In this document: positions 31,429 through 40,373 of the stretch, piece by piece | Layout of the letters: each line of letters starts with the position of its first letter | Position numbering within the stretch: position 1 is the stretch's first letter | From: Candidatus Methylomirabilota bacterium | Lineage (GTDB): Bacteria > Methylomirabilota > Methylomirabilia > Rokubacteriales > CSP1-6 | Direction: 5' to 3' | Length of the DNA stretch: 64,000 bases | NCBI GenBank assembly: GCA_035315345.1 | Contig: DATFYA010000021.1 | Location: 31,674 to 95,673, forward strand | Program-made: the position numbers and the translations under genes | The notes under the pieces: model-generated | The model's database searches: none | What the model saw: the letters and a program-made list of their open reading frames with translations, nothing else | What the model was told of the DNA's origin: nothing

Positions 31429-32124
31429 TCAGGGTGCGCGGGCCCCGGCGCGGGGCCTGAGCACGAACAGGAGCCCGACGCCGGCCAGGAAGCCTCCGAT
31501 GTGGGCGAAGAAGGCCACCCCACCCCGCGCTCCGAAGCTCCCGAGACCGTTCAGGACCTGGAGCACGATCCAAAAGCCCAGCACGACGAGGGCCGGTATT
31601 TTGACCACCCGGAAGAAGAACCCCAGGATGATCAGCGTGGTCACGTGGGCGTGCGGGAACAGCAGCAGGTAGGCGCCGAGGACGCCCGAAACCGCGCCGC
31701 TGGCTCCGACCATCGGCACGTCCGAGGTCGGGCCCATGGCGACCTGCGCCAGCGCGGCCGCCACCCCGGAAGCCAGATAGAAGAGCAGGTAGCGGACGTG
31801 GCCCAGGGTGTCCTCGATGTTGTTGCCGAAGATGCCGAGATAGAGCATGTTGCCGCCGACGTGGAACCAGCCGCCGTGCATGAACATCGACGTGAAGATC
31901 GTCAGCACCGGCGACGGCAGGTCCGGCGACCCGTGACAGGCGCCGGTCAGCCGACACGGCACGAGCCCGAATTCGCGGATGAACGACTCGGCGGCCCGCG
32001 CGCCTTCCCGTCCGCCGACCTCGAGGGAGAACTGGTAGAGGAACACCAGCACGTTGACGACGATGAACGCGATCGTGACGACGGGGGTGGTGTGGCTCGG
32101 ATTGTCGTCTTTCAGGGGAAACAC
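31429..32124 (-). CDS. rhomboid family intramembrane serine protease
   Basis: 231 aa with six TM helices, the catalytic GxSG motif (GASGAVSG) and a His in the last TM (AHIGGFLAG). Confidence 0.8.
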   Translation of the reverse strand: MFPLKDDNPSHTTPVVTIAFIVVNVLVFLYQFSLEVGGREGARAAESFIREFGLVPCRLTGACHGSPDLPSPVLTIFTSMFMHGGWFHVGGNMLYLGIFGNNIEDTLGHVRYLLFYLASGVAAALAQVAMGPTSDVPMVGASGAVSGVLGAYLLLFPHAHVTTLIILGFFFRVVKIPALVVLGFWIVLQVLNGLGSFGARGGVAFFAHIGGFLAGVGLLFVLRPRAGARAP

Positions 32125-32131
32125 GAGCGGA

Positions 32132-33442
32132 CTATTGCGCGGCGGGGCCGAGCGTGACGATCGTCGGGGTCGTCAGGTAGGTCCGCGCCACGCGCTGCAC
32201 GTCCTCGGCGGTCACCGCCTCCACCGCCTGCGCGTAGCGATCGGCGAAGTCGGGGCCCACGCCGAGCGCCTCGAAGAACGCGTCGTACCAGGCGAGCCGC
32301 GCGTTCGTGCGCCGGTCCAGCCCGAACTGGCCGAGCAGGTAGGCCTTCGCGCGGGCCAGCTCGCTCGGGCTCACCGGCTCGCGCCGGATGCGATCGAGCT
32401 CGCCCAGCATCGCGACCTCGGCACGAGCCTGATTGGCGGGAGCCGTGCCGAGCTGGGTGTAGAAGACCCCGGGGCCGCGGCGTGATGGGTACGAGCCGCC
32501 GGTCGAGTACGCCAGCCCCTGCTTGTCCCGGACCTCGGTGAAGAGGCGTCCGGCCATGCCCCCGCCGAGCGCGGTGGCCAGCACCTTCACCGCCGGGTAG
32601 TCGGGGTGCGCGGTGGGCGGGGCGAGGAACGCGACCAGCACCTGGGCCTGCGCGGCGGGCTTCACGAGCACGGTGCGGTCCGCCCGGGCCGCCGCGGAAG
32701 GCTCCAAGGGTTCGGGAGCGCTCTCTTCCGTCGACGCCCCCGCGAATCGCCGGGCCACCTCGGCCACGACCTCCCGGGCCGTGATGTCGCCGCTCACCGC
32801 GAGGATGATGCGGGGCGCGCGGTAGAAGCGCCGATGGTGGGCGACCAGGGTATCGTGATCGATGCGCTCGAGCGCGGCGGCTCGCCCGAGGATCGGCCGG
32901 CCGTACGGATGGTCGCCGTACACGCGGCTCATGACGGTGTCCAGGGCGAGCGGAAACGGCTGATCCTGCCGGCTGCGGAGCGCGGTCAGCATGGCGCGAC
33001 GCTCTCCGTCGATCTCGGCCGCGGGGAGCGTGGGCCGGAGCGCGACGTCCGCCACCAGATCGAGCAGGGTCTTCCAGTTGCGAGCGAGCGCGGTGGCGCG
33101 GATCTCGGAATAGTCCATGTCCGCCGAGGCGCTGATGCCACCCCCGAGCCCCTCCGCGGTCTCGGCGATCTCGAGCGCGGAGCGCGTGGCGGTGCCCTTC
33201 AGCATCACCTGCTGGAGCAGATGGCTGATGCCCGCGTTGTCCTCGGTCTCCCAGCGCGAGCCCATGCGGACGAACAGCGAGGCCGCGACCACCGGCGTGG
33301 CCGCGTTCTCCCGCACCAGGATGGTGAGCCCGTTGGCGAGGCGCGTCCGCTGCGGTCCGGAAGCGGACGCGGCGCCGGCGGCCACGCCGAGCAGCGTGAG
33401 GGCGGCCGCGACCGCAAGAGCGGCCCGCCGACGGCCGGTCAT
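32132..33442 (-). CDS. exported M16 family peptidase, non-catalytic partner subunit (zinc motif degenerated to HLLQQ)
   Basis: About 436 aa starting MTGRRRAALAVAAALTLLGVAAGAASA (signal or Tat-like). It has the M16 fold, but the position of the HxxEH zinc inversion motif reads ISHLLQQVMLKGT, lacking the Glu and second His. Its ATG overlaps the stop of the active M16 gene (ATGA at 33439..33442). Confidence 0.8.
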   Translation of the reverse strand: MTGRRRAALAVAAALTLLGVAAGAASASGPQRTRLANGLTILVRENAATPVVAASLFVRMGSRWETEDNAGISHLLQQVMLKGTATRSALEIAETAEGLGGGISASADMDYSEIRATALARNWKTLLDLVADVALRPTLPAAEIDGERRAMLTALRSRQDQPFPLALDTVMSRVYGDHPYGRPILGRAAALERIDHDTLVAHHRRFYRAPRIILAVSGDITAREVVAEVARRFAGASTEESAPEPLEPSAAARADRTVLVKPAAQAQVLVAFLAPPTAHPDYPAVKVLATALGGGMAGRLFTEVRDKQGLAYSTGGSYPSRRGPGVFYTQLGTAPANQARAEVAMLGELDRIRREPVSPSELARAKAYLLGQFGLDRRTNARLAWYDAFFEALGVGPDFADRYAQAVEAVTAEDVQRVARTYLTTPTIVTLGPAAQ

Positions 33443-34806
33443 TGCGCGCGTCCTCGCGGCACGAAGGCCAGACGCGCGTAGGAGCCGGTCAGGTAGCGGC
33501 GCGCGGCCTGCTGGACCTGATCGCGGGTCACCGCCCGGATCCGATCCACATAGGTGCGCTCCGCCTCGAGGTTCCACGTGGTCTCCGCGCGCCCGTAGGC
33601 CAGGGCCAGGCCCTCGACGGTCTCGCGCGAGAATTCCCGCTCGGCTTCGGACGCGGTGATGGCCCGCGCCAGCTCCTCTGCGGTCACGCCCTCCGACTGC
33701 ACGCGCGCGATCTCGGCCATGATCGCCTTCTCGACCGCGTCCTGATCGGAGCCCTCGAGCTGCGCGGTCACGCCGAGGGCTCCCGCACCCTGCAGCGTCC
33801 CGTACCACCCGCTGATGCTCGACACCAGTCGGGCGCGCTCGCGCAGCGCCTGATTGAGGCGCGAGCTGCGTGAGCCGCCGAGGATGTGGCTGAGCACGTC
33901 CACCGCCGGCATGTCGGGATCGCCGAGCGGCGGGGCCAGCCAGGCGAATCCGAGCTGGGTCTGACGCTCGGGACGCTCCACCGAGCGGGCGCGCACTCCC
34001 TCGAGCGGAGCCGGCGCGCCGACCGGTGGCCGCGCATAGCCGGTGGCGGGCCGCGAGCCGAAGGCCTCGATCGCCGCCGCGCGCACCGCGGCGGGGTCCA
34101 CCGGGCCGACCACCACGAGGGTCAGGTTGTCGGGCACGTAGTGCCGCGCATAGTAGCCGCGCAACGACTCCGGGGTGGCGTCACGCAGATCCTTGACGTC
34201 TCCCAGCACCGGTCGGCCATAGGGATGACCGTCATAGAGGAGGTTGTACAGTTGCCGTCCGAGCGAGGAGCGTGGGTTGTCCTCGTTCAGTCGGACCTCC
34301 TCGAAGACCACCTCGCGCTCGCGCCCCAGCTCGGCGGGATCGAACACCGAGTTGAGCACCATGTCCGCCATCAACGAGATGCCGGAGAGCGCGCGCGCCG
34401 CCGGCAACAGGAGATAGTAGAAGGTGTAGTCGTTGGACGTTCCCGCGTTCGTCCGGCCGCCGACTGCTTCGACCTCGCGATCCACGAAGCCACGCGGGCG
34501 CGTCGTGGTGCCCTTGAAGAGCATGTGCTCCGCGAAATGGGAGAACCCTCGCTCGCCGATCGCTTCGTCGCGGCCGCCCACACCCGCCCAGAGGTGGATC
34601 GCCACCGTGCTGGCCGCCCGATGCTCCTGCACGATGAGACGCATGCCGTTCGGCAGAACCTCTCTCACCAGTGGAGGCAGACCGTGGCGCTGCGATGGCG
34701 TTGTGGACGCAGATCGCGTGGATGCCGGGGCCGCACACCCACTGATCCCCATCGACAGCCCGAGGAGCGCGCAGACGAGTGCGCGCGTGGAGAGGGAGGG
34801 GAACAT
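33439..34806 (-). CDS. exported M16 family zinc peptidase, catalytic subunit (HFAEH motif), probable lipoprotein
   Basis: About 455 aa starting MFPSLSTRALVCALLGLSMGISGC (lipobox-like). It carries an intact HxxEH motif (GFSHFAEHMLFKGT) and a downstream Glu-containing region. The ORF-track start at 34905 is an extension. Confidence 0.8.
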   Translation of the reverse strand: MFPSLSTRALVCALLGLSMGISGCAAPASTRSASTTPSQRHGLPPLVREVLPNGMRLIVQEHRAASTVAIHLWAGVGGRDEAIGERGFSHFAEHMLFKGTTTRPRGFVDREVEAVGGRTNAGTSNDYTFYYLLLPAARALSGISLMADMVLNSVFDPAELGREREVVFEEVRLNEDNPRSSLGRQLYNLLYDGHPYGRPVLGDVKDLRDATPESLRGYYARHYVPDNLTLVVVGPVDPAAVRAAAIEAFGSRPATGYARPPVGAPAPLEGVRARSVERPERQTQLGFAWLAPPLGDPDMPAVDVLSHILGGSRSSRLNQALRERARLVSSISGWYGTLQGAGALGVTAQLEGSDQDAVEKAIMAEIARVQSEGVTAEELARAITASEAEREFSRETVEGLALAYGRAETTWNLEAERTYVDRIRAVTRDQVQQAARRYLTGSYARLAFVPRGRAQ

Positions 34807-34950
34807 TGCGGCTACACGGTACCAGAGCGCCCCAGTGCCCTCAAGCGGCTCAGCCGAGGCAGTCTGCCGGACGGCCGTGCTGCGCCATGCCGGGCAGAAC
34901 GCCATGGCCCGCTTCGAGCGCCTACGGTGTGCTGACCGTATCTGTCTAAT

Positions 34951-34970
34951 TTATTTGACGTTATTTGACA
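34951..34970 (+). promoter_or_regulatory. tandem direct repeat TTATTTGACG / TTATTTGACA upstream of the repeat-protein gene
   Basis: Two adjacent 10-bp copies lie in an AT-rich island within the divergent intergenic region between the M16 peptidase operon and the plus-strand repeat gene. This could be a regulator binding site or -35-like elements. Confidence 0.3.
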
Positions 34971-34978
34971 GGAACCTC

Positions 34979-34996
34979 TTGGCATCCCTGGTGCAT
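34979..34996 (+). promoter_or_regulatory. sigma54-like -24/-12 element (TTGGCAT-N5-GGTGCAT)
   Basis: The GG and GC dinucleotides are spaced exactly as in the TGGCAC-N5-TTGCA consensus, about 100 nt upstream of the ATG at 35097. No convincing sigma70 -10 is present. Confidence 0.3.
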
Positions 34997-35096
34997 CCAA
35001 AGCGTGAGTCCGGGGCCCCAGGAAGCCAGATCGCAAACGGGGAAGACGGCGGCAGCAAACGCAACACACGAGACGAACTGAGAAAGGATCACACAG

Positions 35097-36404
35097 ATGA
35101 GAAAGGTGCTGGCAACGGTGTTGAGTGTGGTGTCGGCGGTCTCCCTCTCGGCCACGGTCGGGATGGCTCAGACCTCCTGCCCCGCCGAGGTGGCATCCGC
35201 GAAGGCCATGCTGGGTCAGATGGCCAAGAGCCAGGACGTCCAGGCGCCTCGCTCGCTGGCGGGCGCTCGGTCGCAGGACGTGCAGGCGCCGCGGGCTCAG
35301 GATGTGCAGGCTCCGCGGTCGCAGGATATCCAGGCGCCCCGTTCGCTGGCGGGCGCTCGGTCGCAGGACGTGCAGGCGCCGCGCGGTCAGGACATCCAGG
35401 CTCCGCGTAGCCAGGACATCCAGGCTCCGCGTGGTCAGAACATCCAGGCGCCGCGCAGTCAGGACGTTCAGGCTCCTCGGAGTCAGGACATCCAGGCCCC
35501 GCGCTCGCTAGCGGGCGCCCGGTCGCAGGACGTGCAGGCTCCTCGCGGTCAGGACATCCAGGCCCCGCGTGGTCAGGACGTTCAGGCGCCGCGCAGCCAG
35601 GACGTGCAGGCTCCCCGCGGTCAGGACATCCAGGCCCCACGTGGTCAGAACATCCAGGCTCCGCGCAGCCAGGACGTGCAGGCGCCGCGTGGCCAGGACA
35701 TCCAGGCCCCGCGTGGTCAGGACGTGCAGGCTCCTCGCAGCCAGGACATCCAGGCTCCGCGCTCGATGGCGGGGGCTCGGTCGCAGGACGTCCAGGCTCC
35801 GCGCAGCCAGGACGTGCAGGCTCCGCGCGGTCAGGACATCCAGGCGCCGCGTGGCCAGGACATCCAGGCCCCGCGTGGTCAGGACGTGCAGGCTCCTCGC
35901 AGCCAGGACGTACAGGCGCCGCGCGGTCAGAACATCCAGGCCCCGCGTGGTCAGGACGTGCAGGCTCCTCGTAGCCAGGACGTACAGGCGCCGCGCGGTC
36001 AGAACATCCAGGCCCCGCGTGGCCAGGACGTGCAGGCTCCTCGTAGCCAGGACGTACAGGCTCCTCGCGGTCAGGACATCCAGGCCCCGCGTGGCCAGGA
36101 CGTGCAGGCTCCTCGTAGCCAGGACGTGCAGGCTCCTCGGGGTCAGGACATCCAGGCTCCGCGCAGCCAGGACGTGCAGGCTCCTCGTGGCCAGGACATC
36201 CAGGCTCCTCGCGGCCAGAACATCCAGGCTCCGCGGACCCAGGACGTGCAGGCCCCGCGTGCCCAGGATGTGCAGGCTCCGCGCTCGGCTGATTTCAAGA
36301 AGGCTTCTGGCCTCGTGAGCGAGGCGGAGGCCGCGTGCAAGGCCGGGAACACGTCGCTGGCCAGTGACAAGGCCAAGGCGGCGATGGAGCTGATGAAGAA
36401 GTAG
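35097..36404 (+). CDS. secreted tandem-repeat protein: signal peptide + 41 x octapeptide (S/G)-Q-D-(V/I)-Q-A-P-R with four S(L/M)AGAR inserts + short helical C-terminal tail
   Basis: 435-aa ORF with an AAGGA RBS 8 nt upstream. It has an N-terminal signal peptide (MRKVLATVLSVVSAVSLSATVGMA|QTS) and a 1056-nt perfectly in-frame 24-nt repeat array. The flanks are related Cys-containing Ala/Lys-rich segments (SCPAEVASAKAML / AACKAGNTSLASDKAKAAMELMKK). A strong intrinsic terminator follows. I do not recognise a homologous family. Confidence 0.85.
   Translation: MRKVLATVLSVVSAVSLSATVGMAQTSCPAEVASAKAMLGQMAKSQDVQAPRSLAGARSQDVQAPRAQDVQAPRSQDIQAPRSLAGARSQDVQAPRGQDIQAPRSQDIQAPRGQNIQAPRSQDVQAPRSQDIQAPRSLAGARSQDVQAPRGQDIQAPRGQDVQAPRSQDVQAPRGQDIQAPRGQNIQAPRSQDVQAPRGQDIQAPRGQDVQAPRSQDIQAPRSMAGARSQDVQAPRSQDVQAPRGQDIQAPRGQDIQAPRGQDVQAPRSQDVQAPRGQNIQAPRGQDVQAPRSQDVQAPRGQNIQAPRGQDVQAPRSQDVQAPRGQDIQAPRGQDVQAPRSQDVQAPRGQDIQAPRSQDVQAPRGQDIQAPRGQNIQAPRTQDVQAPRAQDVQAPRSADFKKASGLVSEAEAACKAGNTSLASDKAKAAMELMKK
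35229..36284 (+). repeat. 24-nt coding tandem repeat array (41 copies plus four 18-nt insert units)
   Basis: Consensus unit caggacgtgcaggctcctcgcggt. Copies differ mostly at synonymous third positions (gcg/gct/gcc, ccg/cct/ccc, cgc/cgt/cgg, gtg/gtc/atc). It generates spurious antisense ORFs at 35089..35640 and 35508..36422. Confidence 0.95.
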
Positions 36405-36426
36405 GGATCGGTACCGAAACACCCAC

Positions 36427-36461
36427 GGCCCCGGGGGCGACCTCGGGGCCGTTTCTTTTTC
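36427..36461 (+). terminator. rho-independent terminator of the repeat-protein gene (possibly bidirectional, also downstream of phnE)
   Basis: GGCCCCG-GGGGCGACCT-CGGGGCC hairpin followed by GTTTCTTTTTC, 23 nt after the stop codon. Confidence 0.7.
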
Positions 36462-36470
36462 GCACGCCGA

Positions 36471-40297: not shown

Positions 40298-40373
40298 TGG
40301 TGGAGACGAGGGGAGTCGAACCCCCGACCTCGGCGTTGCGAACGCCGCGCTCTCCCAACTGAGCTACGTCCCC
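40298..40373 (-). tRNA. tRNA-Ala (anticodon CGC)
   Basis: The reverse complement GGGGACGTAGCTCAGTTGGGAGAGCGCGGCGTTCGCAACGCCGAGGTCGGGGGTTCGACTCCCCTCGTCTCCACCA folds as a 76-nt cloverleaf. It has the G3:U70 Ala identity pair, anticodon loop TTCGCAA and an encoded CCA. Confidence 0.9.

Follow-up and report, generated by a model that had tools for sequence, protein, structure and literature searches.

On the minus strand of a 64-kb stretch of DNA from a soil Methylomirabilota bacterium (Candidatus Rokubacteria; ~70% G+C), referred to here as the window, are two overlapping genes of M16 peptidases. The first encodes an active M16B subunit of 455 amino acids (33439–34806), a predicted lipoprotein, and the second its inactive partner of 436 amino acids (32132–33442), which begins with a Sec-type signal peptide. 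In both chains an N-terminal Peptidase_M16 domain (Pfam PF00675) is followed by a C-terminal Peptidase_M16_C domain (PF05193), at E-values between 1e-24 and 6e-37, and they share 31% identity with each other. Transcribed away from them, on the plus strand, is the gene of a secreted repeat protein (35097–36404). An earlier interpretation made from the DNA alone, the sequence-only reading, had joined the peptidase pair and the repeat gene into a candidate precursor/processing-protease module. The pair is described here as a well-supported heterodimer of MEROPS subfamily M16B, by its sequence of the type of Sph2681/Sph2682 from Sphingomonas, and the repeat gene as a unit that is probably separate from it.

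The active chain carries the zinc motif HFAEH at residues 90–94 (nucleotides 34539–34525) and the distal zinc-binding glutamate E170, 76 residues past H94, a spacing equal to that of 76 tabulated for SPH2681 and for the Bacillus halodurans enzyme BH2405 (BHP, PDB 3HDI) in Table 1 of PMC12731061. In M16 enzymes an arginine and a tyrosine (the R/Y pair) sit in the non-catalytic half and complete the active site (PMC12731061). In the active chain the corresponding position is R322/S329, with the tyrosine lost, and all five aligned orthologs have Ser, Asn or Thr in its place. The best PDB match of this chain is 3AMJ_C, ‘zinc peptidase active subunit’ (1.6e-54). At its N-terminus, MFPSLSTRALVCALLGLSMGISG-C24, is a lipobox, ISG-C24 (Cys24, nucleotides 34737–34735), the cysteine of which is kept in 14 distinct orthologs, and the chain is predicted to be anchored in the membrane by an N-terminal lipid; signal peptides and lipoboxes were called here by sequence pattern and conservation. 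Public gene callers begin the chain at 34644 (401 amino acids), cutting off the lipoprotein signal. We rejected this start, with which both the conserved lipobox and the domain's first strand would be lost, and prefer 34806, because the lipobox is conserved in those 14 orthologs and a conserved promoter-like block lies directly upstream.

In the partner chain the zinc site is lost. Its motif reads H74-L-L-Q77-Q78 (residues 74–78, nucleotides 33223–33209), Ala154 occupies the position of the distal glutamate, and the orthologs have NFLHR, NFLQR or NLLQQ where the zinc motif would be. HFAEH in the first chain and HLLQQ in the second had been recognized in the sequence-only reading, and the distal position (E170 versus A154) agrees with that assignment. 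Retained in the partner is the R/Y pair, R305/Y312 (GRLFTEVRDKQGLAYS), aligned with R..Y in BHP (3HDI) and in Sph2682 (3AMJ_B); the same two structures are the leading PDB matches of the chain, 3HDI at 6e-41 followed by 3AMJ_B, ‘inactive subunit’, at 5.7e-39. The partner has the same amino acid sequence as NCBI HME93299.1, ‘pitrilysin family protein [Methylomirabilota bacterium]’, and public annotation gives both chains merely the name ‘pitrilysin family protein’. The N-terminus of the partner, MTGRRRAALAVAAALTLLGVAAGAASA, includes GRRRAAL, which had been singled out as an RRR-containing export signal. The three arginines are not kept in orthologs, the N-termini of which read MTRHGVAIAG, MRFPLLVV or MSRAPLAL, and export by the twin-arginine (Tat) route was rejected, as the motif S/T-R-R-x-F-L-K is not conserved; an ordinary Sec signal is more likely. 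Of the earlier description of export, the predicted signals on both chains and the lipobox stand, and the significance of RRR does not.

The two genes overlap by four nucleotides (33439–33442, minus strand) at the junction ...cgcgcaATGAccggc..., where the stop codon of the first gene overlaps the start codon of the second (ATGA), as had been noted before. A four-nucleotide ATGA or GTGA overlap is present at every distinct orthologous junction (16 of 16), and the orthologs checked have the same pattern of active and inactive motifs. The losses in the two chains are complementary, the zinc site being gone in one and the tyrosine of the R/Y pair in the other; taken with the role of that pair described in PMC12731061, they point to one composite active site built from both chains. 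Because the zinc site and the R/Y pair are split between the chains, neither is predicted to be active alone. The nearest homologs outside Rokubacteria are fused proteins of ~870 amino acids (860–950) with an active N-terminal half and an inactive C-terminal half, and occur in Opitutae, Planctomycetes, Omnitrophota and Bdellovibrionota (loci L018, L020, L021, L023–L025, L027, L030, L035, L037, L038, L042, L044, L078 and L086; comparison loci are given L numbers here). The pairing of an active with an inactive M16B subunit, proposed in the sequence-only reading, is thus supported by the complementary losses, by the matches to the two subunits of 3AMJ and by the fused relatives. Family membership, motifs, coupling of the genes and conserved signals can be read directly from these comparisons, and from them we infer heterodimer formation, lipidation, periplasmic location and the substrates considered below.

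Closest among the characterized systems is Sph2681/Sph2682 of Sphingomonas sp. A1 (PDB 3AMI and 3AMJ), in which two chains of ~45–50 kDa are likewise encoded by adjacent genes, HxxEH and the distal glutamate are present in one chain only, and the inactive partner retains R/Y; the 3AMJ subunits are the best PDB match of the active chain and the second-best of the inactive chain. Unlike that pair, to which the scores imply an identity of only ~30%, the active chain in the window is a predicted lipoprotein, both chains are predicted to be exported, and the operon runs on into a rhomboid gene. The fold and motifs are also those of BHP and of Thermus TTHA1264/TTHA1265, and it is BHP that is the top match of the inactive chain, with R..Y aligned. 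BHP, however, is a homodimer with two active sites, whereas the complementary degeneration in the window pair argues for an obligate heterodimer.

An active/inactive M16B pair is also found in the mitochondrial processing peptidase (MPP), and the active chain matches MPP-beta at 2e-35. MPP-alpha has a glycine-rich loop in place of the R/Y pair (PMC12731061). Replacement of R/Y by such a loop was considered for the inactive chain and rejected, as this chain keeps R/Y, in contrast to MPP-alpha, and aligns to the bacterial partners in the stretch ahead of the pair; over its LGGGMAGRLF region the alignment is ungapped against BHP and has a single-residue gap against Sph2682. No presequence-type substrate is evident at the locus. 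PqqL and FusC are periplasmic and combine an active and an inactive half in one fused chain, as do the nearest non-Rokubacteria homologs of the pair. PqqL is matched at ~1e-22 to 2e-23, but the window pair consists of two separate chains, nothing indicates ferredoxin or iron piracy, and no TonB-dependent receptor was identified among the flanking genes examined.

Membership in the characterized functional subfamilies was rejected for both chains on NCBIfam scores: PqqF (TIGR02110; 65.6 and 28.9 versus a cutoff of 320), pitrilysin (NF011681; 38.4 and 14.4 versus 765), YfmF (83.6 and 102.4 versus 285) and YfmH (63.1 and 29.7 versus 250). Because all four models score far below their cutoffs, the pair is, by family assignment, a generic M16B heterodimer outside these subfamilies. 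The active plus inactive architecture is shared with AlbE/AlbF and PqqF(/G), but apart from the low family scores the window proteins are predicted to be exported rather than cytoplasmic, and the locus has no biosynthetic gene cluster, its neighbours being rhomboid, TlyA, NadK, RecN, SecA, ABC transporter and HIT genes.

Immediately behind the pair, and unmentioned in the sequence-only reading, is a third protease gene of the locus, that of a rhomboid intramembrane serine protease (31429–32124, minus strand; 231 amino acids; Pfam Rhomboid, 5e-33). Its GTG start lies 7 nucleotides past the stop codon of the inactive chain, and the protein has the HxxxN, catalytic GASG and AHIGG motifs. The rhomboid gene is directly 3′ of the pair in L007, L009, L010, L014, L015, L016 and others, and follows it in every sufficiently long Rokubacteria locus except L017; none was detected after the M16 genes of other phyla. 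This arrangement suggests that the rhomboid gene is probably the third gene of the M16 operon, co-transcribed with the pair, and the three proteases may form a functional trio. A literature search on M16–rhomboid coupling or Rokubacteria peptidases returned nothing relevant. One of the loci listed, L014 (DATMMH010000326.1), is labelled Candidatus Dormiibacterota and has the M16–rhomboid–TlyA–NadK–RecN–SecA block at 80% identity to the window; this contig may be a mis-binned Rokubacteria sequence.

Given a start at 34806, the spacer between the pair and the divergent repeat gene is 290 bp long (34807–35096). Promoter-like blocks were found by aligning eleven distinct orthologous spacers; a simple consensus promoter scan of the spacer reported nothing, the putative sigma-70-like site described next included. 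On the M16 side (34816–34844, minus strand) are a −35 element TTGAGG (34844–34839), a 17-nucleotide gap, an extended −10 element TGGTACCGT (34824–34816) and, after 9 nucleotides, the ATG. All 11 aligned spacers keep the TGnTAnnnT block, and about six of them the TTGAG block. No Shine–Dalgarno sequence precedes the start of the operon. The function of these elements is judged from the alignment; as a sigma-70-type promoter they would give rise to a leaderless or near-leaderless M16 mRNA.

The remaining conserved elements face the repeat gene, on the plus strand. Two sites resembling those of upstream activators, of the form GGCAG-N-(T/C)GCC, span 34858–34903 (GGCAGTCTGCC, 34858–34868; GGCAGAACGCC, 34893–34903) and are conserved blocks in the aligned spacers. 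Between them and the promoter is an AT-rich stretch (34942–34971), in which conservation is limited to the AT-richness and a short GTAA block, and which might be a DNA-bending site like that of integration host factor. At 34980–34996, 101 nucleotides upstream of the ATG of the repeat gene, is a −24/−12 element, TGGCAT-N5-GTGCAT, found by a consensus scan and conserved in position and orientation. It is the only match in the window, where 0.2 would be expected by chance. Every other distinct M16-adjacent lineage that the scan matched has an equivalent element 85–147 nucleotides ahead of the repeat gene; L010 was missed by the scan, and an element with a relaxed last base (TGGCATCCGTCTTGCG) was read there by eye. 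With GG at −24, GC at −12 and activator sites present, this is a putative sigma-54 promoter of the repeat gene, which has its own Shine–Dalgarno sequence, GAAAGGA, at 35082–35088. A motif search of the window (GAFTGA, ESELFGH and RpoN-box) found no activator or rpoN gene.

These elements travel with the repeat gene. Most repeat-gene copies without an M16 neighbour also have the −24/−12 element, and some (L128, L161–L166) have similar activator-like sites upstream; in L010 an inserted GGDEF gene parts the M16 pair from the activator sites, the promoter and the repeat gene, which have stayed together. What regulatory DNA the spacer holds thus amounts essentially to a sigma-54 enhancer-promoter belonging to the repeat gene. 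The two transcription units would accordingly use promoters of different classes, and co-regulation of the two by the spacer is not implied. The 290-bp length given for the divergent regulatory region in the sequence-only reading is correct, but the region does not appear to be shared, as separate sigma-70-like and sigma-54 promoters seem to serve the two sides.

The repeat protein itself has 435 residues. Its signal peptide is followed by an N-terminal helix, which contains Cys28, by 41 units of [GSAT]Q[DN][VI]QAPR, every one ending in QAPR, and by a helical hairpin at the C-terminus, which contains Cys414; the secreted 41-unit protein of the sequence-only reading is confirmed. Members of the family have a conserved signal cleavage site of Ala-x-Ala type and an N-terminal helix in which CP[PA]E is invariant; the number of [GSAT]Q[DE]xQAPR units varies, and the C-terminal hairpin has the form ...EAEAACKxG...KAKAA...LK. 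In the AlphaFold2 model the N-terminal helix (30–48) and the C-terminal hairpin (396–434) have a predicted local distance difference test score (pLDDT) above 90, and the ~345 residues between them (49–394) have no secondary structure and a pLDDT below 50. Cys28 and Cys414 are invariant across the family and, in terms of this model, could form a disulfide closing the protein into a loop.

The number of units varies among contigs with identical or near-identical flanks, being 41 in the window and L001, 38 in L094 and 26 in L095 and L096, and many contigs break off within the array; the difference is either true copy-number polymorphism or assembly collapse. Three database matches of the repeat protein were set aside as compositional, with a score below the cutoff or no single stretch passing: that to the thiovarsolin family of ribosomally synthesized and post-translationally modified peptides (RiPPs), which scores 28.8 versus a cutoff of 35 with no single stretch passing, and those to T4 gp5_C and Peptidase_M23.

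Right behind the repeat gene is a strong, GC-rich, terminator-like hairpin with a T-tract (36425–36462, plus strand). The repeat gene is therefore a monocistronic unit in this genome, and the hairpin fits a monocistronic sigma-54 transcript in the lineage of the window. In four Rokubacteria lineages, immediately 3′ of the repeat gene and on the same strand, is the gene of a Trypsin_2 protein with a signal peptide, a transmembrane segment and a rhodanese-like tail (L009, 8841–10172; L010, 9071–10531; L016, 7513–8937, after a gap of ~4 nucleotides; L165, 4105–4875). This gene was not found in the window, its close relatives, L007 or L013. Elsewhere, among copies of the repeat gene without an M16 neighbour, one is directly 3′ of an Hsp20 gene (L112, 910–1377; L118), with no sigma-54 promoter found upstream of this copy, and another is 3′ of the gene of a PAS/AAA+/HTH_8 sigma-54 activator (L159, 3689–5731). 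These linkages hint at a stress-responsive role of the repeat family.

How often the M16 pair and the repeat gene occur together was followed from both sides. Among seven diverse members of the repeat family whose contexts were examined, the pair is divergently adjacent in three (L007, L009 and L013), separated from the repeat gene by the inserted GGDEF gene in L010, and absent from the vicinity in three (L008, L011 and L012); the M16 proteins of the linked loci are 47–61% identical to those of the window. A metagenome scan with the C-terminal motif of the repeat protein gave 80 loci, 38 of them with enough upstream DNA to be informative. In 25 of the 38 the gene of the active M16 subunit is divergently adjacent, always in the same syntenic block, and in the other 13 there is no M16 gene, although the C-terminal domains are 73–84% identical to that of the window. 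These 13 and L008, L011 and L012 represent at least seven different contexts: after Hsp20, beside HlyD, a GAF protein or the PAS/sigma-54 activator, and others. Altogether, divergent adjacency is seen in the window, L001–L006, L007, L009, L013, L015, L016 and ~25 metagenome loci, and near-adjacency in L010. From the side of the peptidases, neither a QAPR gene nor a coding tandem repeat adjoins M16 in 76 loci from other phyla, and the Rokubacteria pair of L017 lies in an unrelated context without a repeat gene.

Linked loci share much more than these genes. The minus strand of the window continues beyond the two M16 genes (436 and 455 amino acids) and the rhomboid gene with those of TlyA, NAD kinase, RecN and SecA; an ABC transporter and HIT are other neighbours. 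The conserved block reads SecA–RecN–NadK–TlyA–rhomboid–M16–M16 / repeat ... HIT and is kept in orthologs down to 47–50% identity. The adjacency of repeat gene and pair is broken once within it (L010), as is that of rhomboid and TlyA. Because the unrelated housekeeping genes of the block have kept their own adjacency at least as well, that of repeat gene and pair carries little independent weight. The sequence-only reading had named lack of conserved synteny in relatives as a sign of coincidence; synteny with the repeat gene is conserved, but only in Rokubacteria and as part of this larger block. The nearest genomic loci to the window, at 78–80% identity, are those of Rokubacteria metagenome-assembled genomes. 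The sole Rfam match in the window is a tRNA gene (40301–40373, minus strand), and the Rfam search gave no match within the 290-bp spacer.

We consider it reasonably probable that the two M16 proteins are halves of one exported M16B peptidase with a housekeeping role in the cell envelope, and that the repeat gene is a separate unit, next to the pair as part of an inherited Rokubacteria gene order. The lipid-anchored first chain would provide the zinc site (H90, E93, H94 and E170), and the Arg/Tyr pair of the second chain would reach across the clam-shell and complete the active site. The two genes would be translationally coupled and most likely co-transcribed with the rhomboid gene from the sigma-70-type promoter abutting the start codon, and the repeat gene would be transcribed separately from its own sigma-54 promoter and activator sites. 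Characterized bacterial M16B enzymes degrade short unstructured peptides (PMC12731061). By analogy, clearance of such peptides from the envelope is the most likely role of the pair, and fragments released by the rhomboid protease may be among those degraded; a functional link between the pair and the repeat protein is presumably absent.

Several observations weigh against such a separation. The adjacency of repeat gene and pair persists in deep Rokubacteria lineages, at M16 identities of 47–61%, and survives nearby insertions (ABC transporter, S1 protease), a pattern likewise expected of a functional link. The repeat region, predicted to be disordered, would be accessible to proteases, and the locus is rich in them, with the M16 pair, the rhomboid protease and, in four lineages, the trypsin-like protease. 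The putative M16 −35 element is only ~14–60 bp away from the activator sites, which lie upstream of it and could influence the M16 promoter too. In addition, the genomes of the repeat copies without M16 may hold an M16-linked copy as well, which would make the former paralogs. The alternative suggested in the sequence-only reading is that the heterodimer processes or degrades the repeat protein in the periplasm; the rhomboid protease might take part, and the protein would be diced into octapeptides or removed after sigma-54-controlled induction. With the divergent adjacency conserved in Rokubacteria loci, both products predicted to be exported, the repeat region predicted to be disordered, and M16 enzymes acting on unstructured peptides (PMC12731061), we regard this as possible but doubtful. 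The adjacency cannot be separated from the synteny of the block, repeat genes stand without M16 in 13 of the 38 informative loci and in at least seven contexts, and the M16 genes of the 76 loci from other phyla never flank repeat genes. The two units appear to have promoters of different classes. The M16 chamber usually takes peptides of up to ~70 residues (PMC12731061), compared with ~400 in the proposed substrate, and the repeat sequence (…QAPR/G-S…) matches no known M16B preference. A precursor/processing-protease module therefore finds no independent support here, synteny being limited to one phylum and repeat copies occurring in at least seven contexts without M16.

If the repeat protein is processed at all, the Trypsin_2 protease is a candidate at least as good as the M16 pair, because every repeat ends in Pro-Arg with a small residue after it; Pro-Arg before Gly, Ser, Ala or Thr is a trypsin/thrombin-like site. 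Processing by this membrane-anchored protease rather than by M16 agrees with the position of its gene, co-directional with and directly after the repeat gene in L009, L010, L016 and L165, but would entail its loss or relocation in the lineage of the window; we hold it to be unlikely, given its absence from the window and close relatives, L007 and L013, and the caveat of block synteny, which applies to it equally. Very improbable is a role of the pair as a RiPP leader or maturation peptidase of the AlbE/AlbF or PqqF/PqqG type (a likeness drawn in the sequence-only reading), with a multi-core precursor as its substrate. The active plus inactive M16B architecture is that of AlbF/AlbE (PMC12731061), and the thiovarsolin match, weak as it is, points the same way. 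The scores for PqqF, YfmF, YfmH and thiovarsolin, however, are below their cutoffs, none of the flanking genes examined was identified as a radical-SAM, YcaO or other maturase gene or as a pqq gene, and the Sec-type signals on both chains and on the repeat protein, cleavable in the latter, contrast with the cytoplasmic maturation of such RiPPs. Envelope housekeeping by the M16B heterodimer, beside an independently transcribed repeat gene, remains the reading that we prefer.

The less ordinary feature of the locus is the repeat family, with its secreted, disordered and copy-number-variable octapeptide repeats under a conserved putative sigma-54 promoter. A speculative and quite unlikely extension is that the repeat protein is a sigma-54-induced polyprotein, cut after export at Pro-Arg into dozens of near-identical octapeptides (G/S-Q-D-V/I-Q-A-P-R) by the M16 pair, the rhomboid protease and sometimes the trypsin-like protease. 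If so, the octapeptides would serve in signalling, as carriers of a metal or nutrient, or as antimicrobials, and the locus would be a ribosomal multi-copy peptide factory like eukaryotic prohormones, with the M16 pair as its dedicated convertase or clearance enzyme. Were the precursor/protease module real, it would be of note; the adjacency by itself gives it no support. As a heterodimer predicted from sequence, the pair presents a clean, textbook-quality case of complementary degeneration in bacterial M16B enzymes. It has value for annotation, as public calls truncate the signal peptide and name the chains generically, and it informs the poorly defined physiology of prokaryotic M16B enzymes.

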